From: Pseudorhodoplanes sp.
Lineage (GTDB): Bacteria; Pseudomonadota; Alphaproteobacteria; Rhizobiales; Xanthobacteraceae
Assembly: GCA_050246095.1 (NCBI GenBank)
Contig: JBFWWQ010000001.1
Coordinates: 1 to 45,992 of the forward strand
DNA length: 45,992 bases
Direction of reading: 5' to 3'
Part shown: one piece after another, positions 1,165 through 6,093 of the stretch
Layout of the letters: each line of letters begins with the position of its first letter
Position numbering within the stretch: the stretch's first letter is position 1
Translations under genes and position numbers: made by a program
The notes under the pieces: generated by a model
Seen by the model: the letters and a program-made list of their open reading frames with translations, nothing else
The model's database searches: none
Told to the model about the DNA's origin: nothing

Positions 1165-1551
1165 TTAGATCGCCGACAGCCGCCAGGCCTGCGGGAAGCT
1201 GCCATAGTCGGTGCTGGTCACGCCGTTGCGCGTGGAGCCGGGATATTTCTCCAGCGCCGCGGCGACGGTCAGGCGCAGCACGCCGGTCTCGCCCGGCTTC
1301 AGCAGTCCGGCATGCACGGCGGCCGCTCCGATGGTCGAATCGCGGGTATAGGTGTCGGTCCCCCACAATTGTCCCTCGGTCGTGCCGGTGACGCGGAAAT
1401 AATAGGTGGTGCCGGGCGTCTCGGAGAGACCGACCATGCTGGGCGGCGCGTCCGAGGCGATGAAGTTCTGTTCGAGCAGCTTGCGCAGCTGTCGGCGCGA
1501 CAGCTTCCCGCGCCGGTCGAAATAGGCGACAAGCTCCTGGATTGCCTTCAT
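1165..1551 (-). CDS. Small LCCL-domain protein (128 aa) with basic N-terminal helical extension
   Basis: LWGTDTYTRDSTIGAAAVHAG and YPGSTRNGVTS match the LCCL signature; ATG at 1551 overlaps the upstream stop (ATGA) and is preceded by AAGGAGG. Confidence 0.8.
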   Translation of the reverse strand: MKAIQELVAYFDRRGKLSRRQLRKLLEQNFIASDAPPSMVGLSETPGTTYYFRVTGTTEGQLWGTDTYTRDSTIGAAAVHAGLLKPGETGVLRLTVAAALEKYPGSTRNGVTSTDYGSFPQAWRLSAI

Positions 1552-2801
1552 GGCGCGTCCTCCTTCCGCATGGTGACGATCCGTCCGTAGGACGGCTGAA
1601 AACCGGAATTCTCGCGCGGCAAGGCCCACAGCACGGCATAGGGAGGGGCGTCCGGCGGAAAGGCGATGTCGCCGTCGGTGATCACCACGGCGGCCGTGAC
1701 GCGCGGATCGTCCGTCAGCGCGTGCATGGCCGGCGAGAGGTCGCTGCCGCCATAGCCGCTGATCTCGTATTCGGCGAGTTCGGCCGGCGAGACCCGCTCG
1801 TCGGAGGTGACGACGGTATCGCACTGGATGACGCGGATGTCGTCGACCCCGGCCGCTTCGCAGAAATCGGCGATCGCGCCGAGCGCGAACGGGATGTTGT
1901 CGCCCATCGACGCGCTGGTATCGAGCACGACATTGAGCAGCCAGGAATAGCGCTTGCGCCCCGGCGTCACGACGTCGGTGCGCTCGGCGCCGCCGCGGCG
2001 GGACGGGCGCATGAAGGTGCGTTCGCCGGGGGCGACGCCTTCGAGCCAGGTCTGCAGCGCCATCTGCCACGGGGTGCCGCTGATGCCGCGCAGCGCGCGG
2101 ACATTCTGCTGGGTCGTACCGCTCTGCGTGCCGCGCCCGCGCATCGTATCCATCGCTTTCGCGAGCGCCATGCCCTTGGCGGCGAGATCGCCGATCGCGC
2201 GCGCGCGCGCGTCCTGGTCGGTGCTGTCGTCGGGGAACATGTCGCGTTCGCGCGCCGCATCGAGCACGTCGCCCGCTTGCCTGCCGGCCGCCTGGCGCGC
2301 GGCGCCGAGCGCCTGATCGACGGTGGCGATGCCGCCTTCCCAAACCTGGGTGCGGGAAGCCATGTTGCTGCCGGAGGCGCGCATCTGCACGATGATTTCC
2401 TCGGCCGATTTCTCGCGCGCGCCCGGCATGTCGAGGCCGCCGGCCGGGATGGCGGTAAGGCCGAGCGCGTGGCGCAGCATGTCGTTGATGATGTAGTCGT
2501 GCGCGTAGTTGAATTCGAGGTGATGCGAGCCGCGCGCGCGGTCATGCGTGCGCAGCGCCAGATGCCGCAATTCGTGCGCCAGCACGAAGACGAGATCGTT
2601 GCCCGACAGCCGCGCCGTGAAGTCCCGGTTCGCGACCAGGCGCCCCGAGGCGAAAACGCCCATCGTGGGCACGCGATCGTCGAGCGCGACGCGCACGGCG
2701 GCGGCGAGCCCGGCGAGATGCGGGAACGGCACCGTGACCATGCGCAGCGCGCGCGCGATGCGCGCGAGCGCCGCGCGGTCCGCGGCAGCGGCGCCGGTCA
2801 T
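1548..2801 (-). CDS. DUF2201-type putative metallopeptidase (HExxH) fused to C-terminal vWA domain
   Basis: AHELRH followed by NYAHDYIIN; vWA MIDAS LDTSASM, GYGGSDL, VITDG; ATGA overlap with the ATPase stop at 2798-2801. Confidence 0.85.
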   Translation of the reverse strand: MTGAAAADRAALARIARALRMVTVPFPHLAGLAAAVRVALDDRVPTMGVFASGRLVANRDFTARLSGNDLVFVLAHELRHLALRTHDRARGSHHLEFNYAHDYIINDMLRHALGLTAIPAGGLDMPGAREKSAEEIIVQMRASGSNMASRTQVWEGGIATVDQALGAARQAAGRQAGDVLDAARERDMFPDDSTDQDARARAIGDLAAKGMALAKAMDTMRGRGTQSGTTQQNVRALRGISGTPWQMALQTWLEGVAPGERTFMRPSRRGGAERTDVVTPGRKRYSWLLNVVLDTSASMGDNIPFALGAIADFCEAAGVDDIRVIQCDTVVTSDERVSPAELAEYEISGYGGSDLSPAMHALTDDPRVTAAVVITDGDIAFPPDAPPYAVLWALPRENSGFQPSYGRIVTMRKEDAP

Positions 2802-3832
2802 GCCGCTGCGACCTTGCGCAGGAGGTCGTACATGGCGCGGTCGGCGCCGAGCGATCCCCATTTCTCGACCATGTCGGTCAGCACGATCAGCTGATGCTCC
2901 GACGACAGGCTGCGCAGGAAGCGGTTGATTGCGCGCGGCTTGAACCCGTCGGCCCTGCCGTCGCGCACGAATTGGCGGATGCAGTCGAGGATGAACCAGC
3001 GCGCCGAATCGCCCTTCGGCAGCAATTCGGGGTTGCGCAGATAGTCCGCCAGCGGGCGCACCGCCTCGATCGCCTCCTCCGCGAGCGCGCAGAAGACGGC
3101 GGCGTCTTCCGGCGAAAGCCGGCCGAAGGCGAGGGCGCGCCGCGTCTCGTTGGTGAGGACGCCGGATTTCTCCGCCATGTCGAAGGCGCGCGAGAGCAGC
3201 GTCCAGGCGCGCGGCGTGGAGAACGGCACCGGGTCCGCCGGCACCGGCCGCATCAGCGCGTCAGGCACCGTGGCGACGAAGCTGCAGATTTCGTTGCGGA
3301 CGCCGCTGCGCCGCGCCCAGGCGAGCCATTCGTCCACGTCGATTCGCAGTTGCAGGATGGTGACGCGGTTGATCAGCGCCGAGCTCATGGCGCGCACCAG
3401 CGCGCGGTCCTGCAGCCGGTTGCCGGCGGCGACCACCCAGGTGCCTTTGGGCAGCGCATGCTCGCCCAGGCGGCGTTCCAGCAGCAGCGAATAGAAGGCC
3501 TTCTGGACGTCCGGCGCGCAGGCCGGCAGCTCGTCGAGGAACAGGCAGAACGGCTCCGGACGCTCCGGCAGCAGGATGCGCGGCGGGCAGAACACCGAGC
3601 GTTCGCCGACGATGCGCGGGATGCCGCTCACGTCCTCGGGCGCGATCTGGGTGCCGAGCAGCGAGCGGCAGGGCAGGCTCGCCTCGCGCGCCGCCTCGTA
3701 GACCATTTCGGACTTGCCCATGCCGGGGGCCGAAAGCAGCAGGAAGCTCTGTTCGTGCGCCATGCACTGGATGAGCTTTTTCGCCTGGCGAAGCGTCACC
3801 ACCTCGTTGAACGCGCTTTGACCGCTCTGCAT
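2798..3832 (-). CDS. MoxR-like AAA+ ATPase (AAA_5 type)
   Basis: Walker A SAPGMGKS, Walker B LFLDE, sensor-1 AAGN, Arg finger LINR, sensor-2 TPRAW; GGGGAG RBS upstream (alternative ATG at 3838). Confidence 0.88.
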   Translation of the reverse strand: MQSGQSAFNEVVTLRQAKKLIQCMAHEQSFLLLSAPGMGKSEMVYEAAREASLPCRSLLGTQIAPEDVSGIPRIVGERSVFCPPRILLPERPEPFCLFLDELPACAPDVQKAFYSLLLERRLGEHALPKGTWVVAAGNRLQDRALVRAMSSALINRVTILQLRIDVDEWLAWARRSGVRNEICSFVATVPDALMRPVPADPVPFSTPRAWTLLSRAFDMAEKSGVLTNETRRALAFGRLSPEDAAVFCALAEEAIEAVRPLADYLRNPELLPKGDSARWFILDCIRQFVRDGRADGFKPRAINRFLRSLSSEHQLIVLTDMVEKWGSLGADRAMYDLLRKVAAA

Positions 3833-4017: not shown

Positions 4018-4674
4018 TCAGAACTCGACGTCGAGCTCCTCCAGCTCGTCCGGCTCGGTTTTCGCGCCGGCGATCCATTCCTGCATCGGCGGCATAGTCA
4101 TAATGACCGAGCAATAGGCCGCGCATTCGGAATCGAGCTTCACGTCGTAGGTGAGGAAGCGCGTGCAGACCGGCGCGTACATGGCGTCCGCCATGCACGG
4201 GTCCTTTCCGAACAGATACGGCCCGTGCGACTGCGCCAGGCATTCGCGCCAGATCGTCATCACGCGGTCGATGTCGGCTTGCGCACCCTGCCAGACCTTG
4301 AAGCCGGGATAATGCGCCTTGATGTTCATCGGCAGGGCCGAACGCAGGTTCGAGAATCCCGAATGCATCTCGCCGGAAATTGAGCGGCAGCGCGCGCGCG
4401 CCTTGCGGTCGGCCGGCATCAGTCCGGCCTGCGGCTTGATCTCGTTCAGGTATTCGGCGATCGCCAGCGTGTCCCAGACCGCTATTCCCGCGTGCGTGAG
4501 GCATGGCACCAGGAAGGAGGGCGACAGCAGCAGCAATTCGGCGCGGGTCGACGGGTCGTCGCTCGGCAGCATGACCTCTTCGAAGTCGAGGCCGGCCATC
4601 TTGCACAGCAGCCAGCCGCGCAGCGACCACGAGCCGTAATTCTTGCTGCTGATAGTCAGCGTTGCCTTGGACAT
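4018..4674 (-). CDS. Glutathione S-transferase family protein
   Basis: SKNYGSWSLRGWL, VPCL..WDTLAIAEYL, EMHSGFSNLR, ADAMYAPV motifs. Confidence 0.9.
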   Translation of the reverse strand: MSKATLTISSKNYGSWSLRGWLLCKMAGLDFEEVMLPSDDPSTRAELLLLSPSFLVPCLTHAGIAVWDTLAIAEYLNEIKPQAGLMPADRKARARCRSISGEMHSGFSNLRSALPMNIKAHYPGFKVWQGAQADIDRVMTIWRECLAQSHGPYLFGKDPCMADAMYAPVCTRFLTYDVKLDSECAAYCSVIMTMPPMQEWIAGAKTEPDELEELDVEF

Positions 4675-4863
4675 GAACCGTTCCCCCGTGACGCAGCATG
4701 ACAAGCGGCCACCCCGGACGGGGAGGCCGGCGAATCCCCGGCGGAAACGTGATTTATTATCTCGCAGTGCAGCGAGAAATGCACTAGCCTTTTCGCGCCG
4801 GGAGTTGGGGTGGGGGGGGCCGTCAGGCGTCGTCGCGCCTTTTTTGCGTGGATGACGCAGAAA

Positions 4864-6093
4864 ATGCTCTATCAGGCATATCAGGCCCATTCCGACATCA
4901 TGGTTCCGGTCCGGGCGCTGGCTACCGCAGCGCAAAAAACGCTGGGTGCGCCGGTCAACGGCCTGGCCGGCCATCCCATGATGGCGGGGATTTCCAATCT
5001 CAACGCCGCCTACGAACTGATCGCCCGCGCCGGGCTCACGCATCGCCGTCCCGATTACGGCATCCGCAGCGTGACCTGCGGCAACAGCGAGGCCGCGGTG
5101 GTCGAGCGGGCCGTGCATGTCACCCCGTTCGGCTCGCTGCTGCATTTCCGCAAGGAGGGTGTGGAGACGGCGCAGCCGCGCGTGCTGGTGGTGGCGCCGC
5201 TGTCGGGGCATTTCGCGACGCTGCTGCGCGGCACCGTGAAGACGCTGCTGCCCGAGAACGACGTCTACATCACCGACTGGCACAATGCGCGCGACGTCTC
5301 GACCGGGCACGGTCGTTTCGGCTTCGACGATTATGTCGAGCACCTGATCACCTTCTTCGAGGTGATGGGACCGGGCGCGCATGTGATCGCGGTCTGCCAG
5401 CCCTGCGTCGCCGCCCTGGTTGCGGTCGCGGTGATGTCGGAGCAGGGGCATCCGGCAACCCCGCGCTCGATGACGCTGATGGCCGGGCCGATCGACACGC
5501 GCGTGAACGCGACCAAGGTCAACGAGCTGGCCAAGTCGAAGCCGATCGACTGGTTCGAGAAGAACCTGATCGCCGCCGTGCCGCTGCGCTTCGGCGGCGG
5601 CGGCCGGCGCGTCTATCCCGGCTTCGTGCAGCTTGCGGCCTTCATGAGCATGAATATCGACCGCCACCTCAAGGCGCACGAGGAACTCTACCACAACCTC
5701 GCGCGCGGCGAGGTTGAGAAGGCGGAGACGACCAAGAGCTTCTATGACGAGTATTTCGCGGTGCTCGATCTGACGGCGGAATTCTATCTCGAGACCGTCC
5801 GCTGGGTGTTCCAGGAGCACCGCCTGCCGCTCGGCACGCTCGACTATCGCGGCCGCAAGGTCGATCCCTCCGCGATCCGCAAGACCGCGCTGCTGACGGT
5901 GGAGGGCGAGCGCGACGACATCTGCGCGGTCGGCCAGACGGTCGCGGCGCACGATCTCTGCAGCAAGCTGCGGCCGGCGCGCAAGAAGCACCATATGCAG
6001 CCGGGCGTCGGCCATTACGGCGTCTTTTCCGGCACCAAGTGGCAGAACCAGGTCTATCCGCTCGTCCGCAACGTCATCCTGCAGAGCGACTGA
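4864..6093 (+). CDS. phaZ: Intracellular polyhydroxyalkanoate (PHB) depolymerase
   Basis: VAPLSGHFATLLRGTV, YITDW.NAR, catalytic AVCQP, EGERDDI, GVGHYGVF; alternative start 4852. Confidence 0.92.
   Translation: MLYQAYQAHSDIMVPVRALATAAQKTLGAPVNGLAGHPMMAGISNLNAAYELIARAGLTHRRPDYGIRSVTCGNSEAAVVERAVHVTPFGSLLHFRKEGVETAQPRVLVVAPLSGHFATLLRGTVKTLLPENDVYITDWHNARDVSTGHGRFGFDDYVEHLITFFEVMGPGAHVIAVCQPCVAALVAVAVMSEQGHPATPRSMTLMAGPIDTRVNATKVNELAKSKPIDWFEKNLIAAVPLRFGGGGRRVYPGFVQLAAFMSMNIDRHLKAHEELYHNLARGEVEKAETTKSFYDEYFAVLDLTAEFYLETVRWVFQEHRLPLGTLDYRGRKVDPSAIRKTALLTVEGERDDICAVGQTVAAHDLCSKLRPARKKHHMQPGVGHYGVFSGTKWQNQVYPLVRNVILQSD

Follow-up and report, generated by a model that had tools for sequence, protein, structure and literature searches.

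Several molecular machines combine a AAA+ ATPase ring with a domain of the von Willebrand factor A (vWA) type that bears an adhesion site dependent on metal ions (MIDAS), among them NorQ-NorD, CbbQ-CbbO, RavA-ViaA and midasin/Rea1. None of these contains a metallopeptidase domain, the proteins they act on are large enzymes or factors of the ribosome, and Rea1 pulls its clients via a small N-terminal handle domain. The same scheme recurs in three coupled genes near the start of the window (the whole 45,992-nucleotide stretch analyzed here, from contig JBFWWQ010000001.1 of Pseudorhodoplanes sp., assembly GCA_050246095.1), which encode a MoxR-like ATPase, a metallopeptidase-vWA protein with a loop before the MIDAS strand like the NorD finger, and a small LCCL-domain protein; no gene for a client of the above kinds is linked to the trio in the surveyed loci. 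What is new in this system is a shared N-terminal tag with exchangeable cargo on the third protein, such that the LCCL domain is not its constant part.

The ATPase and the metallopeptidase-vWA protein belong to the same two families (PHROG 1297 and PHROG 1314), with the same peptidase-vWA fusion, as a pair known from phages. We found no functional study of this MoxR + DUF2201 pair in the searched literature, and it may correspond to the association of the TM0930 subfamily of MoxR with a COG3864 partner. TM0930 is named in the MoxR subfamily lists contained in passages of PMC11432383 and PMC9964418. For the phage pair, the relevant section of PMC7824862 (Iyer et al. 2021) reports its presence in group 2.2 jumbo phages and proposes a part in chaperoning and virion assembly with proteolytic processing, and a passage of PMC4193335 counts genes 24 and 25 (vWFA) of phage N4, presumed members of the two families, among the core genes. 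The top phage matches are only 27-42% identical, and in contrast to the clade described here we have seen no tagged or LCCL third gene described for phages.

Ternary MoxR-vWA conflict systems have also been defined, with VMAP, iSTAND, FtsH and beta-propeller third components in the text of PMC7159879 (Kaur 2020) and with iSTAND2 and TERNS3 in that of PMC8195603 (Kaur 2021), making six in all. These share with the present locus a MoxR ATPase, a vWA protein and a dedicated, coupled third protein, and the sister loci described below likewise have variable binding domains, including FGE-sulfatase, and a small all-helical terminal module. The differences are that the peptidase here is N-terminal to the vWA domain, that nothing is fused behind the vWA domain, and that the third genes encode tag plus LCCL or tag plus a helical domain, with no match to the Pfam models of those systems. 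The main texts and two supplement files of the two papers do not mention LCCL, and none of the six systems they define has an N-terminal peptidase on the vWA protein; their source-data files could still list related loci. The first-pass annotation of this DNA knew of no characterized system with the trio, and our search, which covered literature outside subscription, likewise returned no named system and no paper on it. The trio is undescribed in the searched literature, and it is a ternary MoxR-vWA variant built on the known DUF2201 pair.

The three genes lie on the minus strand and are joined by two ATGA overlaps, at 3832-2798, 2801-1548 and 1551-1165, exactly as first annotated:

2798..3832, minus strand: MoxR-like AAA+ ATPase gene (344 aa; AAA_5; PHROG 1297 family)
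2798..2801, minus strand: ATGA stop/start overlap from the ATPase to the peptidase-vWA gene, read from the sequence
1548..2801, minus strand: metallopeptidase-vWA gene (417 aa; DUF2201_N + DUF2201; PHROG 1314 family)
1548..1551, minus strand: ATGA stop/start overlap from the peptidase-vWA to the LCCL protein gene, with a GGAGGA ribosome-binding-like site just upstream
1165..1551, minus strand: third-component (LCCL) gene (128 aa; no signal peptide or transmembrane segment)
1456..1551, minus strand: amphipathic helix-turn-helix tag of about 32 aa, homologous to the N-termini of non-LCCL sister third genes
1168..1446, minus strand: LCCL domain (about residues 36-128; Pfam LCCL/Rxt3 match at 58-118)

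The whole three-protein version comes to 889 residues. Pfam matched the profiles expected from the first-pass annotation (AAA_5, DUF2201_N/DUF2201 and LCCL), NCBIfam has no family for any of the three proteins, and hydropathy gives no transmembrane or signal segment in any of them, the third protein reaching a maximal 19-residue value of 0.89. GC content at third codon positions is 0.85-0.91 across the three genes and resembles that of their neighbors; the source genome (87% complete) contains one copy of each of the three. A search for sigma-70 promoters and terminators at the trio gave nothing above chance, and the one identical contig found in an RNA library, 241 nt inside the vWA gene, does not show transcription.

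The LCCL protein had been put forward as a dedicated third component of the ATPase-vWA pair, and linkage examined in both directions bears this out. Anchoring a GTDB scan on the LCCL protein, we confirmed 118 relatives and analyzed the loci of the best 80 of these: the ATPase and then the vWA gene lay directly upstream in 65 of the 66 loci with at least 2.7 kb of upstream sequence, and no fourth gene was conserved beside the trio in these loci, as called with a crude open reading frame (ORF) caller. In the one locus that departs from this, L074, the final 13 codons of the vWA gene remain, transposase-like ORFs lie nearby, and the genome has the three genes at another place. Because the overlaps are recurrent, with a vWA-to-LCCL spacing of -4 in 54 of 69 scored loci and an ATPase stop of ATGA or GTGA in 60 of 62, they are more than chance. 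The trio travels together across many Proteobacteria. Starting instead from the ATPase, 8 of 301 genomes from the order have a match at 60% identity or above: in five of these the identity is at least 74% and the LCCL gene is present, and in the other three it is 61-64% and the LCCL gene is absent. In a metagenome motif scan (127 of about 400 stretches, with 76 that had flanks counted; the counts leave out 44 short loci of at most 632 nt, L202 carries heavy frameshifts, and L208 is a duplicate of L207), ATPase loci with sufficient room had the LCCL gene downstream in 20 of 20 cases at 70% identity or more and in 0 of 16 below it.

Because the LCCL-type ATPases form one clade, with 41 LCCL-type rows on a single branch among sister types in an IQ-TREE analysis of 68 ATPases (Shimodaira-Hasegawa-like approximate likelihood ratio test, 99), a single historical linkage event appears to account for the presence of LCCL. 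It could be argued from this, and from second copies of the LCCL gene that stand alone in L074 and L276, that LCCL is a passenger, operon-linked once and inherited since with no functional connection. We regard this as very improbable: the trio survives relocation into dozens of contexts, both orphans occur in genomes that also hold the ATPase, and the tag is common to different third genes on either side of sister ATPases and, among the 301 genomes, gives strong matches only alongside this ATPase clade. The orphan tag+LCCL genes themselves (L074:8001-8384 and L276:7927-8313) lie near transposase-like ORFs and may be relics or trans-acting extra partners.

The view of the third gene as encoding simply a 128-aa LCCL protein needs revision, in that the LCCL domain spans just residues 36-128 or so, and a separate element that had been overlooked occupies residues 1-32. 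The linkage of LCCL to the pair stands, but the constant part of the third component is this N-terminal tag, with LCCL as lineage-specific cargo. The tag always begins at residue 1, has the consensus MKVIxQLVxYFxxRGxLSxxQxxxLxxxGF with a conserved hydrophobic face (positions 1, 3, 4, 7, 8, 11, 17, 22, 25, 30 and 31), and exceeds the LCCL domain in conservation (mean identity 72% vs 62%). Sister loci have non-LCCL third genes of 330-780 aa, upstream or downstream of the ATPase and often closely coupled to it, in which the first 30 or so residues share homology with the LCCL protein's residues 1-32. When a hidden Markov model (HMM) built from LCCL-clade tags only was run against 34,459 six-frame ORFs, sister-locus N-termini came out above all other non-LCCL ORFs (best sister E 3e-7; first unrelated match E 4.2), and alignment of the LCCL-clade and sister tag profiles with hhalign gave a probability of 97.5 and an E-value of 5e-12.

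The occurrence of the tag also follows that of the ATPase. Strong matches (E <= 1.5e-9) were present in only 7 of the 301 genomes, all among the 8 with an ATPase of at least 60% identity, and in the eighth the third gene is cut by the contig end. The strong match in G144, a held-out non-LCCL genome outside the training set, joins a cut gene to its tag, and six weak partial matches (E 0.003-0.01) among the 301 genomes were treated as chance. There are 12 sister loci with enough sequence on either side to show a tagged gene, and in 7 of them the tag was detected at E < 1e-3.

In a model of a sister protein the tag forms helices 2-13 and 19-27. The usual arrangement in these proteins is a tag, a linker that is acidic and disordered (in 13 of 18 tagged proteins, residues 33-75 include 10-17 D/E; predicted local distance difference test, pLDDT, <50) and a helical domain of about 220 aa, to which one protein adds HEAT repeats and one FGE-sulfatase; the cargo domains of tagged proteins are of binding type, and no enzyme was found among them. 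Because the tag is also carried by unrelated third genes of sister systems, the third protein is likely to be a swappable targeting subunit. More specifically, we put the chances at about even that it is a tag-docked, exchangeable specificity subunit of an ATP-driven remodeler or protease.

Attempts to assign the tag to a known family were not successful. Effector-associated domains (EADs) are defined in a passage of PMC7159879 by homotypic coupling, with at least two copies in a genome carried by different proteins, and the tag fails this definition because it is single-copy in most genomes checked: G000, G722, G725 and G727 have one copy each, and G709 and G810 carry a second copy as part of an additional tag+LCCL gene. 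An identity as EAD7, CARD or SHOCT is unproven, with sub-threshold Pfam scores only (EAD7 at E 0.007-0.14 in 3 of 19 tags, CARD at 0.01-0.02 in 2 and SHOCT_2 at 0.27 in 1); a resemblance to MshEN found no match in the Pfam scan of the 19 tags; and nothing usable came out of an Atlas search run with the tag.

Several features of the sister loci are of separate interest. The helical domain of about 220 aa constitutes an all-helical family of 13 members at 20-55% identity (e.g., P0273, at L102:2525-3526), with no Pfam or PHROG family, no Foldseek match at E <= 0.001, a best Z of 5.2 (VIA) and Atlas matches below 0.9, none of which shows a new fold; a search for longer fusions of the domain returned none, which is weak evidence. 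The tagged third gene L181:3803-4867 has a Cys-rich (CxxC) insert where the acidic linker would be expected. Tandem duplicated ATPases occur in L187 (2289-4103), L184, L190, L173 and L202, fused as a 604-aa protein in L187, which suggests mixed rings. An extra ATPase paralogue whose C-terminal part is replaced by the C-terminal domain of the RNA polymerase alpha subunit (alpha-CTD) is present at L207:4830-5816, L143:4202-5203 and L212:2111-3199 (the alpha-CTD matches Pfam at E about 1e-20 in L207 and L143 and scores below the threshold in L212) and is possibly a decoy or a link to transcription.

The two partners of the third protein retain the following motifs:

3710..3733, minus strand: Walker A of the ATPase, SAPGMGKS (residues 34-41), from the alignment
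3530..3547, minus strand: Walker B of the ATPase, CLFLDE (residues 96-101), invariant in 59/59
2562..2576, minus strand: HExxH motif (H76-E77-x-x-H80), predicted zinc site, in 41/41 LCCL-clade homologues
2496..2510, minus strand: NYAHD motif (residues 98-102), N98 invariant and A100/H101/D102 at least 90% in 57 sequences
1953..2024, minus strand: flexible basic loop (residues 260-283, RPSRRG...PGR) directly before the MIDAS strand, pLDDT <50
1908..1922, minus strand: MIDAS DxSxS (DTSAS, residues 294-298), with further MIDAS residues S353 and D376

All of the motifs quoted for these proteins in the first-pass annotation are present, with two corrections: the first Gly of Walker A is Ser, as it is throughout the clade (Ala in 5 of 40), and the MIDAS 'T' is also Ser (GYGGSD). 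The ATPase matches AAA_5 (PF07728) at E 5e-5, over the cut-off, and PHROG 1297 at E 2e-59; the Walker A GKS, Walker B LFLDE, sensor-1 AGNR, Arg finger NR and sensor-II TPR are kept in all 59 aligned homologues, and a helix-2 insert is likely at about residues 70-85. Its intact motifs, AAA_5 profile and coupled vWA neighbor place it in the MoxR clade of AAA+ proteins, and its core is slow-evolving (87% mean identity). The peptidase-vWA protein matches DUF2201_N (E 5e-16), DUF2201 (E 9e-15) and PHROG 1314 (E 8e-47); the label 'HNH endonuclease' given to phrog_1314 in PHROGs looks like a misannotation of the DUF2201 peptidase-vWA family. A sequence search of the PDB found no relative of either protein.

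An AlphaFold model of the peptidase-vWA protein (mean pLDDT 86; predicted template modeling score 0.63) has an N-terminal domain, a long helical linker, the disordered basic loop 260-283 and the vWA domain. The N-terminal domain bears HExxH on helix 67-82 and NYAHD (NxAHD) on helix 94-113, and D102 is a candidate third zinc ligand; an HExxH helix followed by a conserved candidate ligand agrees with a zincin-like metallopeptidase. The vWA fold with its MIDAS is recovered at Z 9-11.6 (root-mean-square deviation 2.6-3.3 over about 130 residues), with the MIDAS domain of MDN1/Rea1 and NorD as the best Foldseek rows, although at weak E-values of 1.4e-3 to 6e-3 that fall short of the tool's 1e-3 bar. 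D294 and D376 are invariant in 57 sequences, and Ser occupies the MIDAS T position. The vWA domain ends at about residue 412 of 417, and with LCCL-clade homologues of 404-453 aa there is no effector fused C-terminal to it. The basic loop, in which R268, R269 and G281 are invariant in the alignment, is predicted by analogy to be a pore-inserting 'finger': its position matches that of the finger in the NorD model of PMC9976466, a passage of which describes the finger as entering the ATPase pore one strand from the MIDAS.

From these features, the three genes constitute a conserved, self-contained module, likely a cytoplasmic ATP-driven protein-remodeling machine and likely a proteolytic one as well. 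By analogy with NorQD, CbbQO and midasin, the MoxR hexamer would take one peptidase-vWA subunit, whose basic loop 260-283 would enter the ATPase pore, and ATP turnover would pull on whatever the MIDAS metal binds. In the present system, the tag would bind the ATPase/peptidase-vWA core, and the cargo (LCCL here; the helical domain with or without HEAT or FGE-sulfatase in the sisters) would bring or sense the client, which would then be remodeled and probably cut at the HExxH site.

It might be countered that every characterized MoxR/vWA pair is an assembly chaperone, as passages of PMC7159879 and PMC9976466 indicate, and that the papers found show no peptidase activity for DUF2201_N. On that account the pair is a non-proteolytic chaperone for assembly or metal insertion, like NorQD or CbbQO, with the HExxH domain binding metal or client and with the LCCL protein as the client. 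We judge this improbable in view of two observations: the catalytic-type Glu of HExxH is kept in all 41 LCCL-clade proteins and nearly all sisters, and a 128-aa single-domain protein would make an unlikely sole client for a dedicated chaperone.

The LCCL cargo is identified by sequence. Pfam assigns it at E 2e-14 (53.9 bits against a cut-off of 22.6), its WGTD/YxxDS/AAVHxG core is invariant in 41 of 41 LCCL-clade proteins, and the best PDB sequence matches are Rxt3 (8i03_I, E 4e-7) and cochlin (1jbi, E 5e-3), so that by sequence it has the same LCCL fold as these proteins. The 849 homologues of the third protein are 70-224 aa long, and close relatives occur in Pseudorhodoplanes sp. and other Hyphomicrobiales. 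The copy in the window differs from other LCCL proteins in being a single LCCL domain with no signal peptide and no Cys, fused to the tag, whereas the others scanned are mostly tandem repeats, many fused to an M56 peptidase or kinase (the representative search was dominated by LCCL-repeat proteins, and 69 of 150 matches were domain-scanned). Many proteins combine a tandem run of 3-11 LCCL domains with a domain of the BlaR1-type M56 peptidase, Ser/Thr kinase, caspase or OmpA kind (P0128, P0133, P0136, P0144, P0142, P0195 and others); this is apparently a common, little-described sensor architecture, and we read the repeats fused to M56 peptidases and kinases as sitting at sensory positions. Three apparent vWA-LCCL fusions (P0275-P0277) were set aside as frameshift artefacts, being single sequences with out-of-frame stretches.

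A different relationship between cargo and machine can be envisaged, in which the third protein is a substrate: the machine would grip the tag or an acidic stretch, and the HExxH site would cut the tag-cargo junction and so release or activate LCCL. The acidic disordered linker behind sister tags would suit a MIDAS ligand or a site of cleavage. Among the 41 LCCL-clade proteins, an acidic residue occupies position 6 in 41, position 12 in 41 and position 34 in 40, and the junction has two invariant residues, A32 and P36. There is also the precedent, analogous only in outline, of the cochlin LCCL domain, which a metalloprotease frees from the vWA domains according to a passage of PMC7526977. We nevertheless think it unlikely that the third protein is a substrate, in that its 1:1 translational coupling and strong tag conservation agree with a stable subunit, the linker of the LCCL type has only some 5 residues, and no cleavage motif is conserved in both clades.

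The trio is inserted next to a convergent dedA-like gene (616-1146), across an 18-nt gap, with a glutathione S-transferase (GST) gene (4018-4668) on its other side; insertion at this site is indicated because congeners have the dedA-like and GST genes near each other with no trio between them. DNA similarity to these congeners stops at the ends of the trio, and no flanking repeats mark the insertion. Within the genus there are two trio sequence types (79-86% and 56-63%), and in the tree the ATPase of the window groups with copies from Bosea, Phreatobacter and Beijerinckiaceae. Because of the trio-less sites, the similarity edges, the two sequence types and this grouping, we infer that the module moves as a unit. 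Separately, the divergent GST (4018-4668) and polyhydroxybutyrate-depolymerase (4834-6093) genes are kept paired in many congeners and are unrelated to the trio.

Of 30 congeners, 22 have the third gene (11 of 13 when only high-quality genomes are counted), as do 23 of 81 genomes of a Bosea-centered genus sample, and the trio occurs in 5 of 301 genomes of the order. Cultured Bosea and Pseudochelatococcus strains are among its hosts. The 400 further genomes in the class sample contained no close ATPase. Plasmids contained no close ATPase or full-length third gene, and the clade signature motif was not found in the viral contigs of IMG/VR. The genes flanking the trio vary by lineage and are mostly for transport and housekeeping, as called with the crude ORF caller.

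Mobility and patchiness of this kind, at 23/81 and 5/301, would fit a conflict system, and the first-pass annotation had raised a possible anti-phage role. In a MoxR-vWA ternary system of that sort, the third protein would sense the invader and the peptidase would act as effector or trigger. The two sequence types in one genus, the variable cargo, duplicated ATPases and alpha-CTD paralogue (a possible decoy) of the sister loci, and the description of third components as sensors in the text of PMC7159879 all fit such a role. For the present clade, neither neighborhood nor distribution supports it, conflict-like as the sister loci look. PADLOC 2.0 matched none of its families to the three proteins at E <= 0.01. 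Matches were obtained for 16 of 140 flanking proteins at 40 loci (140 of the 153 called, with no background rate), of which we judged one to be a real defence gene (a type II restriction enzyme in L010) and ten to be ABC-ATPase cross-hits. The flanks are of housekeeping type, the third gene is near-core in the genus of the window, the ATPase core evolves slowly, and no effector is fused behind the vWA domain. A defence function for this clade is, in our estimation, quite unlikely, and our guess is a role in stress or quality control.

Several observations weigh against the proposal that the tag docks an exchangeable specificity subunit onto a proteolytic machine. Several fold-search alignments with the sister model cover residues 1 to about 310, and therefore the tag may pack on the C-terminal helices of its own protein, in an intramolecular arrangement and not as a free handle. 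Across clades no acidic position in the tag is invariant, so that the tag is no obvious ligand for the MIDAS. Four of the 12 roomy sister loci have tag-like sequences by eye only, and a further one, L155, has no tagged gene despite room on both sides. The vWA domain filled both fold searches, leaving the fold of the peptidase domain with no separate match, and one sister peptidase-vWA protein shows HQxxH in place of HExxH. The 70% identity line in the metagenome counts was drawn after the data had been seen, and the ATPase tree is a quick version only.

The MoxR + DUF2201 pair is widespread in bacteria, with distant ATPase homologues also in 810 phage and 135 plasmid records. A broader scheme, which we offer tentatively and hold to be doubtful as yet, is that DUF2201 peptidase-vWA/MoxR pairs are tag-directed ATP-dependent proteases with no chambered peptidase, each subfamily having its own terminal tag; the 32-aa tag would then be a portable handle that delivers a fused domain (LCCL, HEAT or FGE-sulfatase) or a bound client. 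Because the clade is compact, soluble and highly conserved, with a defined candidate docking tag, the targets of DUF2201 pairs and the coupling of their proteolysis to ATP are directly testable by tag swaps. The trio also sets the LCCL fold, with its unsettled ligand, in the context of the bacterial cytosol. If the scheme is true, tag-directed DUF2201 proteases would represent a new class of energy-dependent proteolysis that operates without a chambered peptidase.

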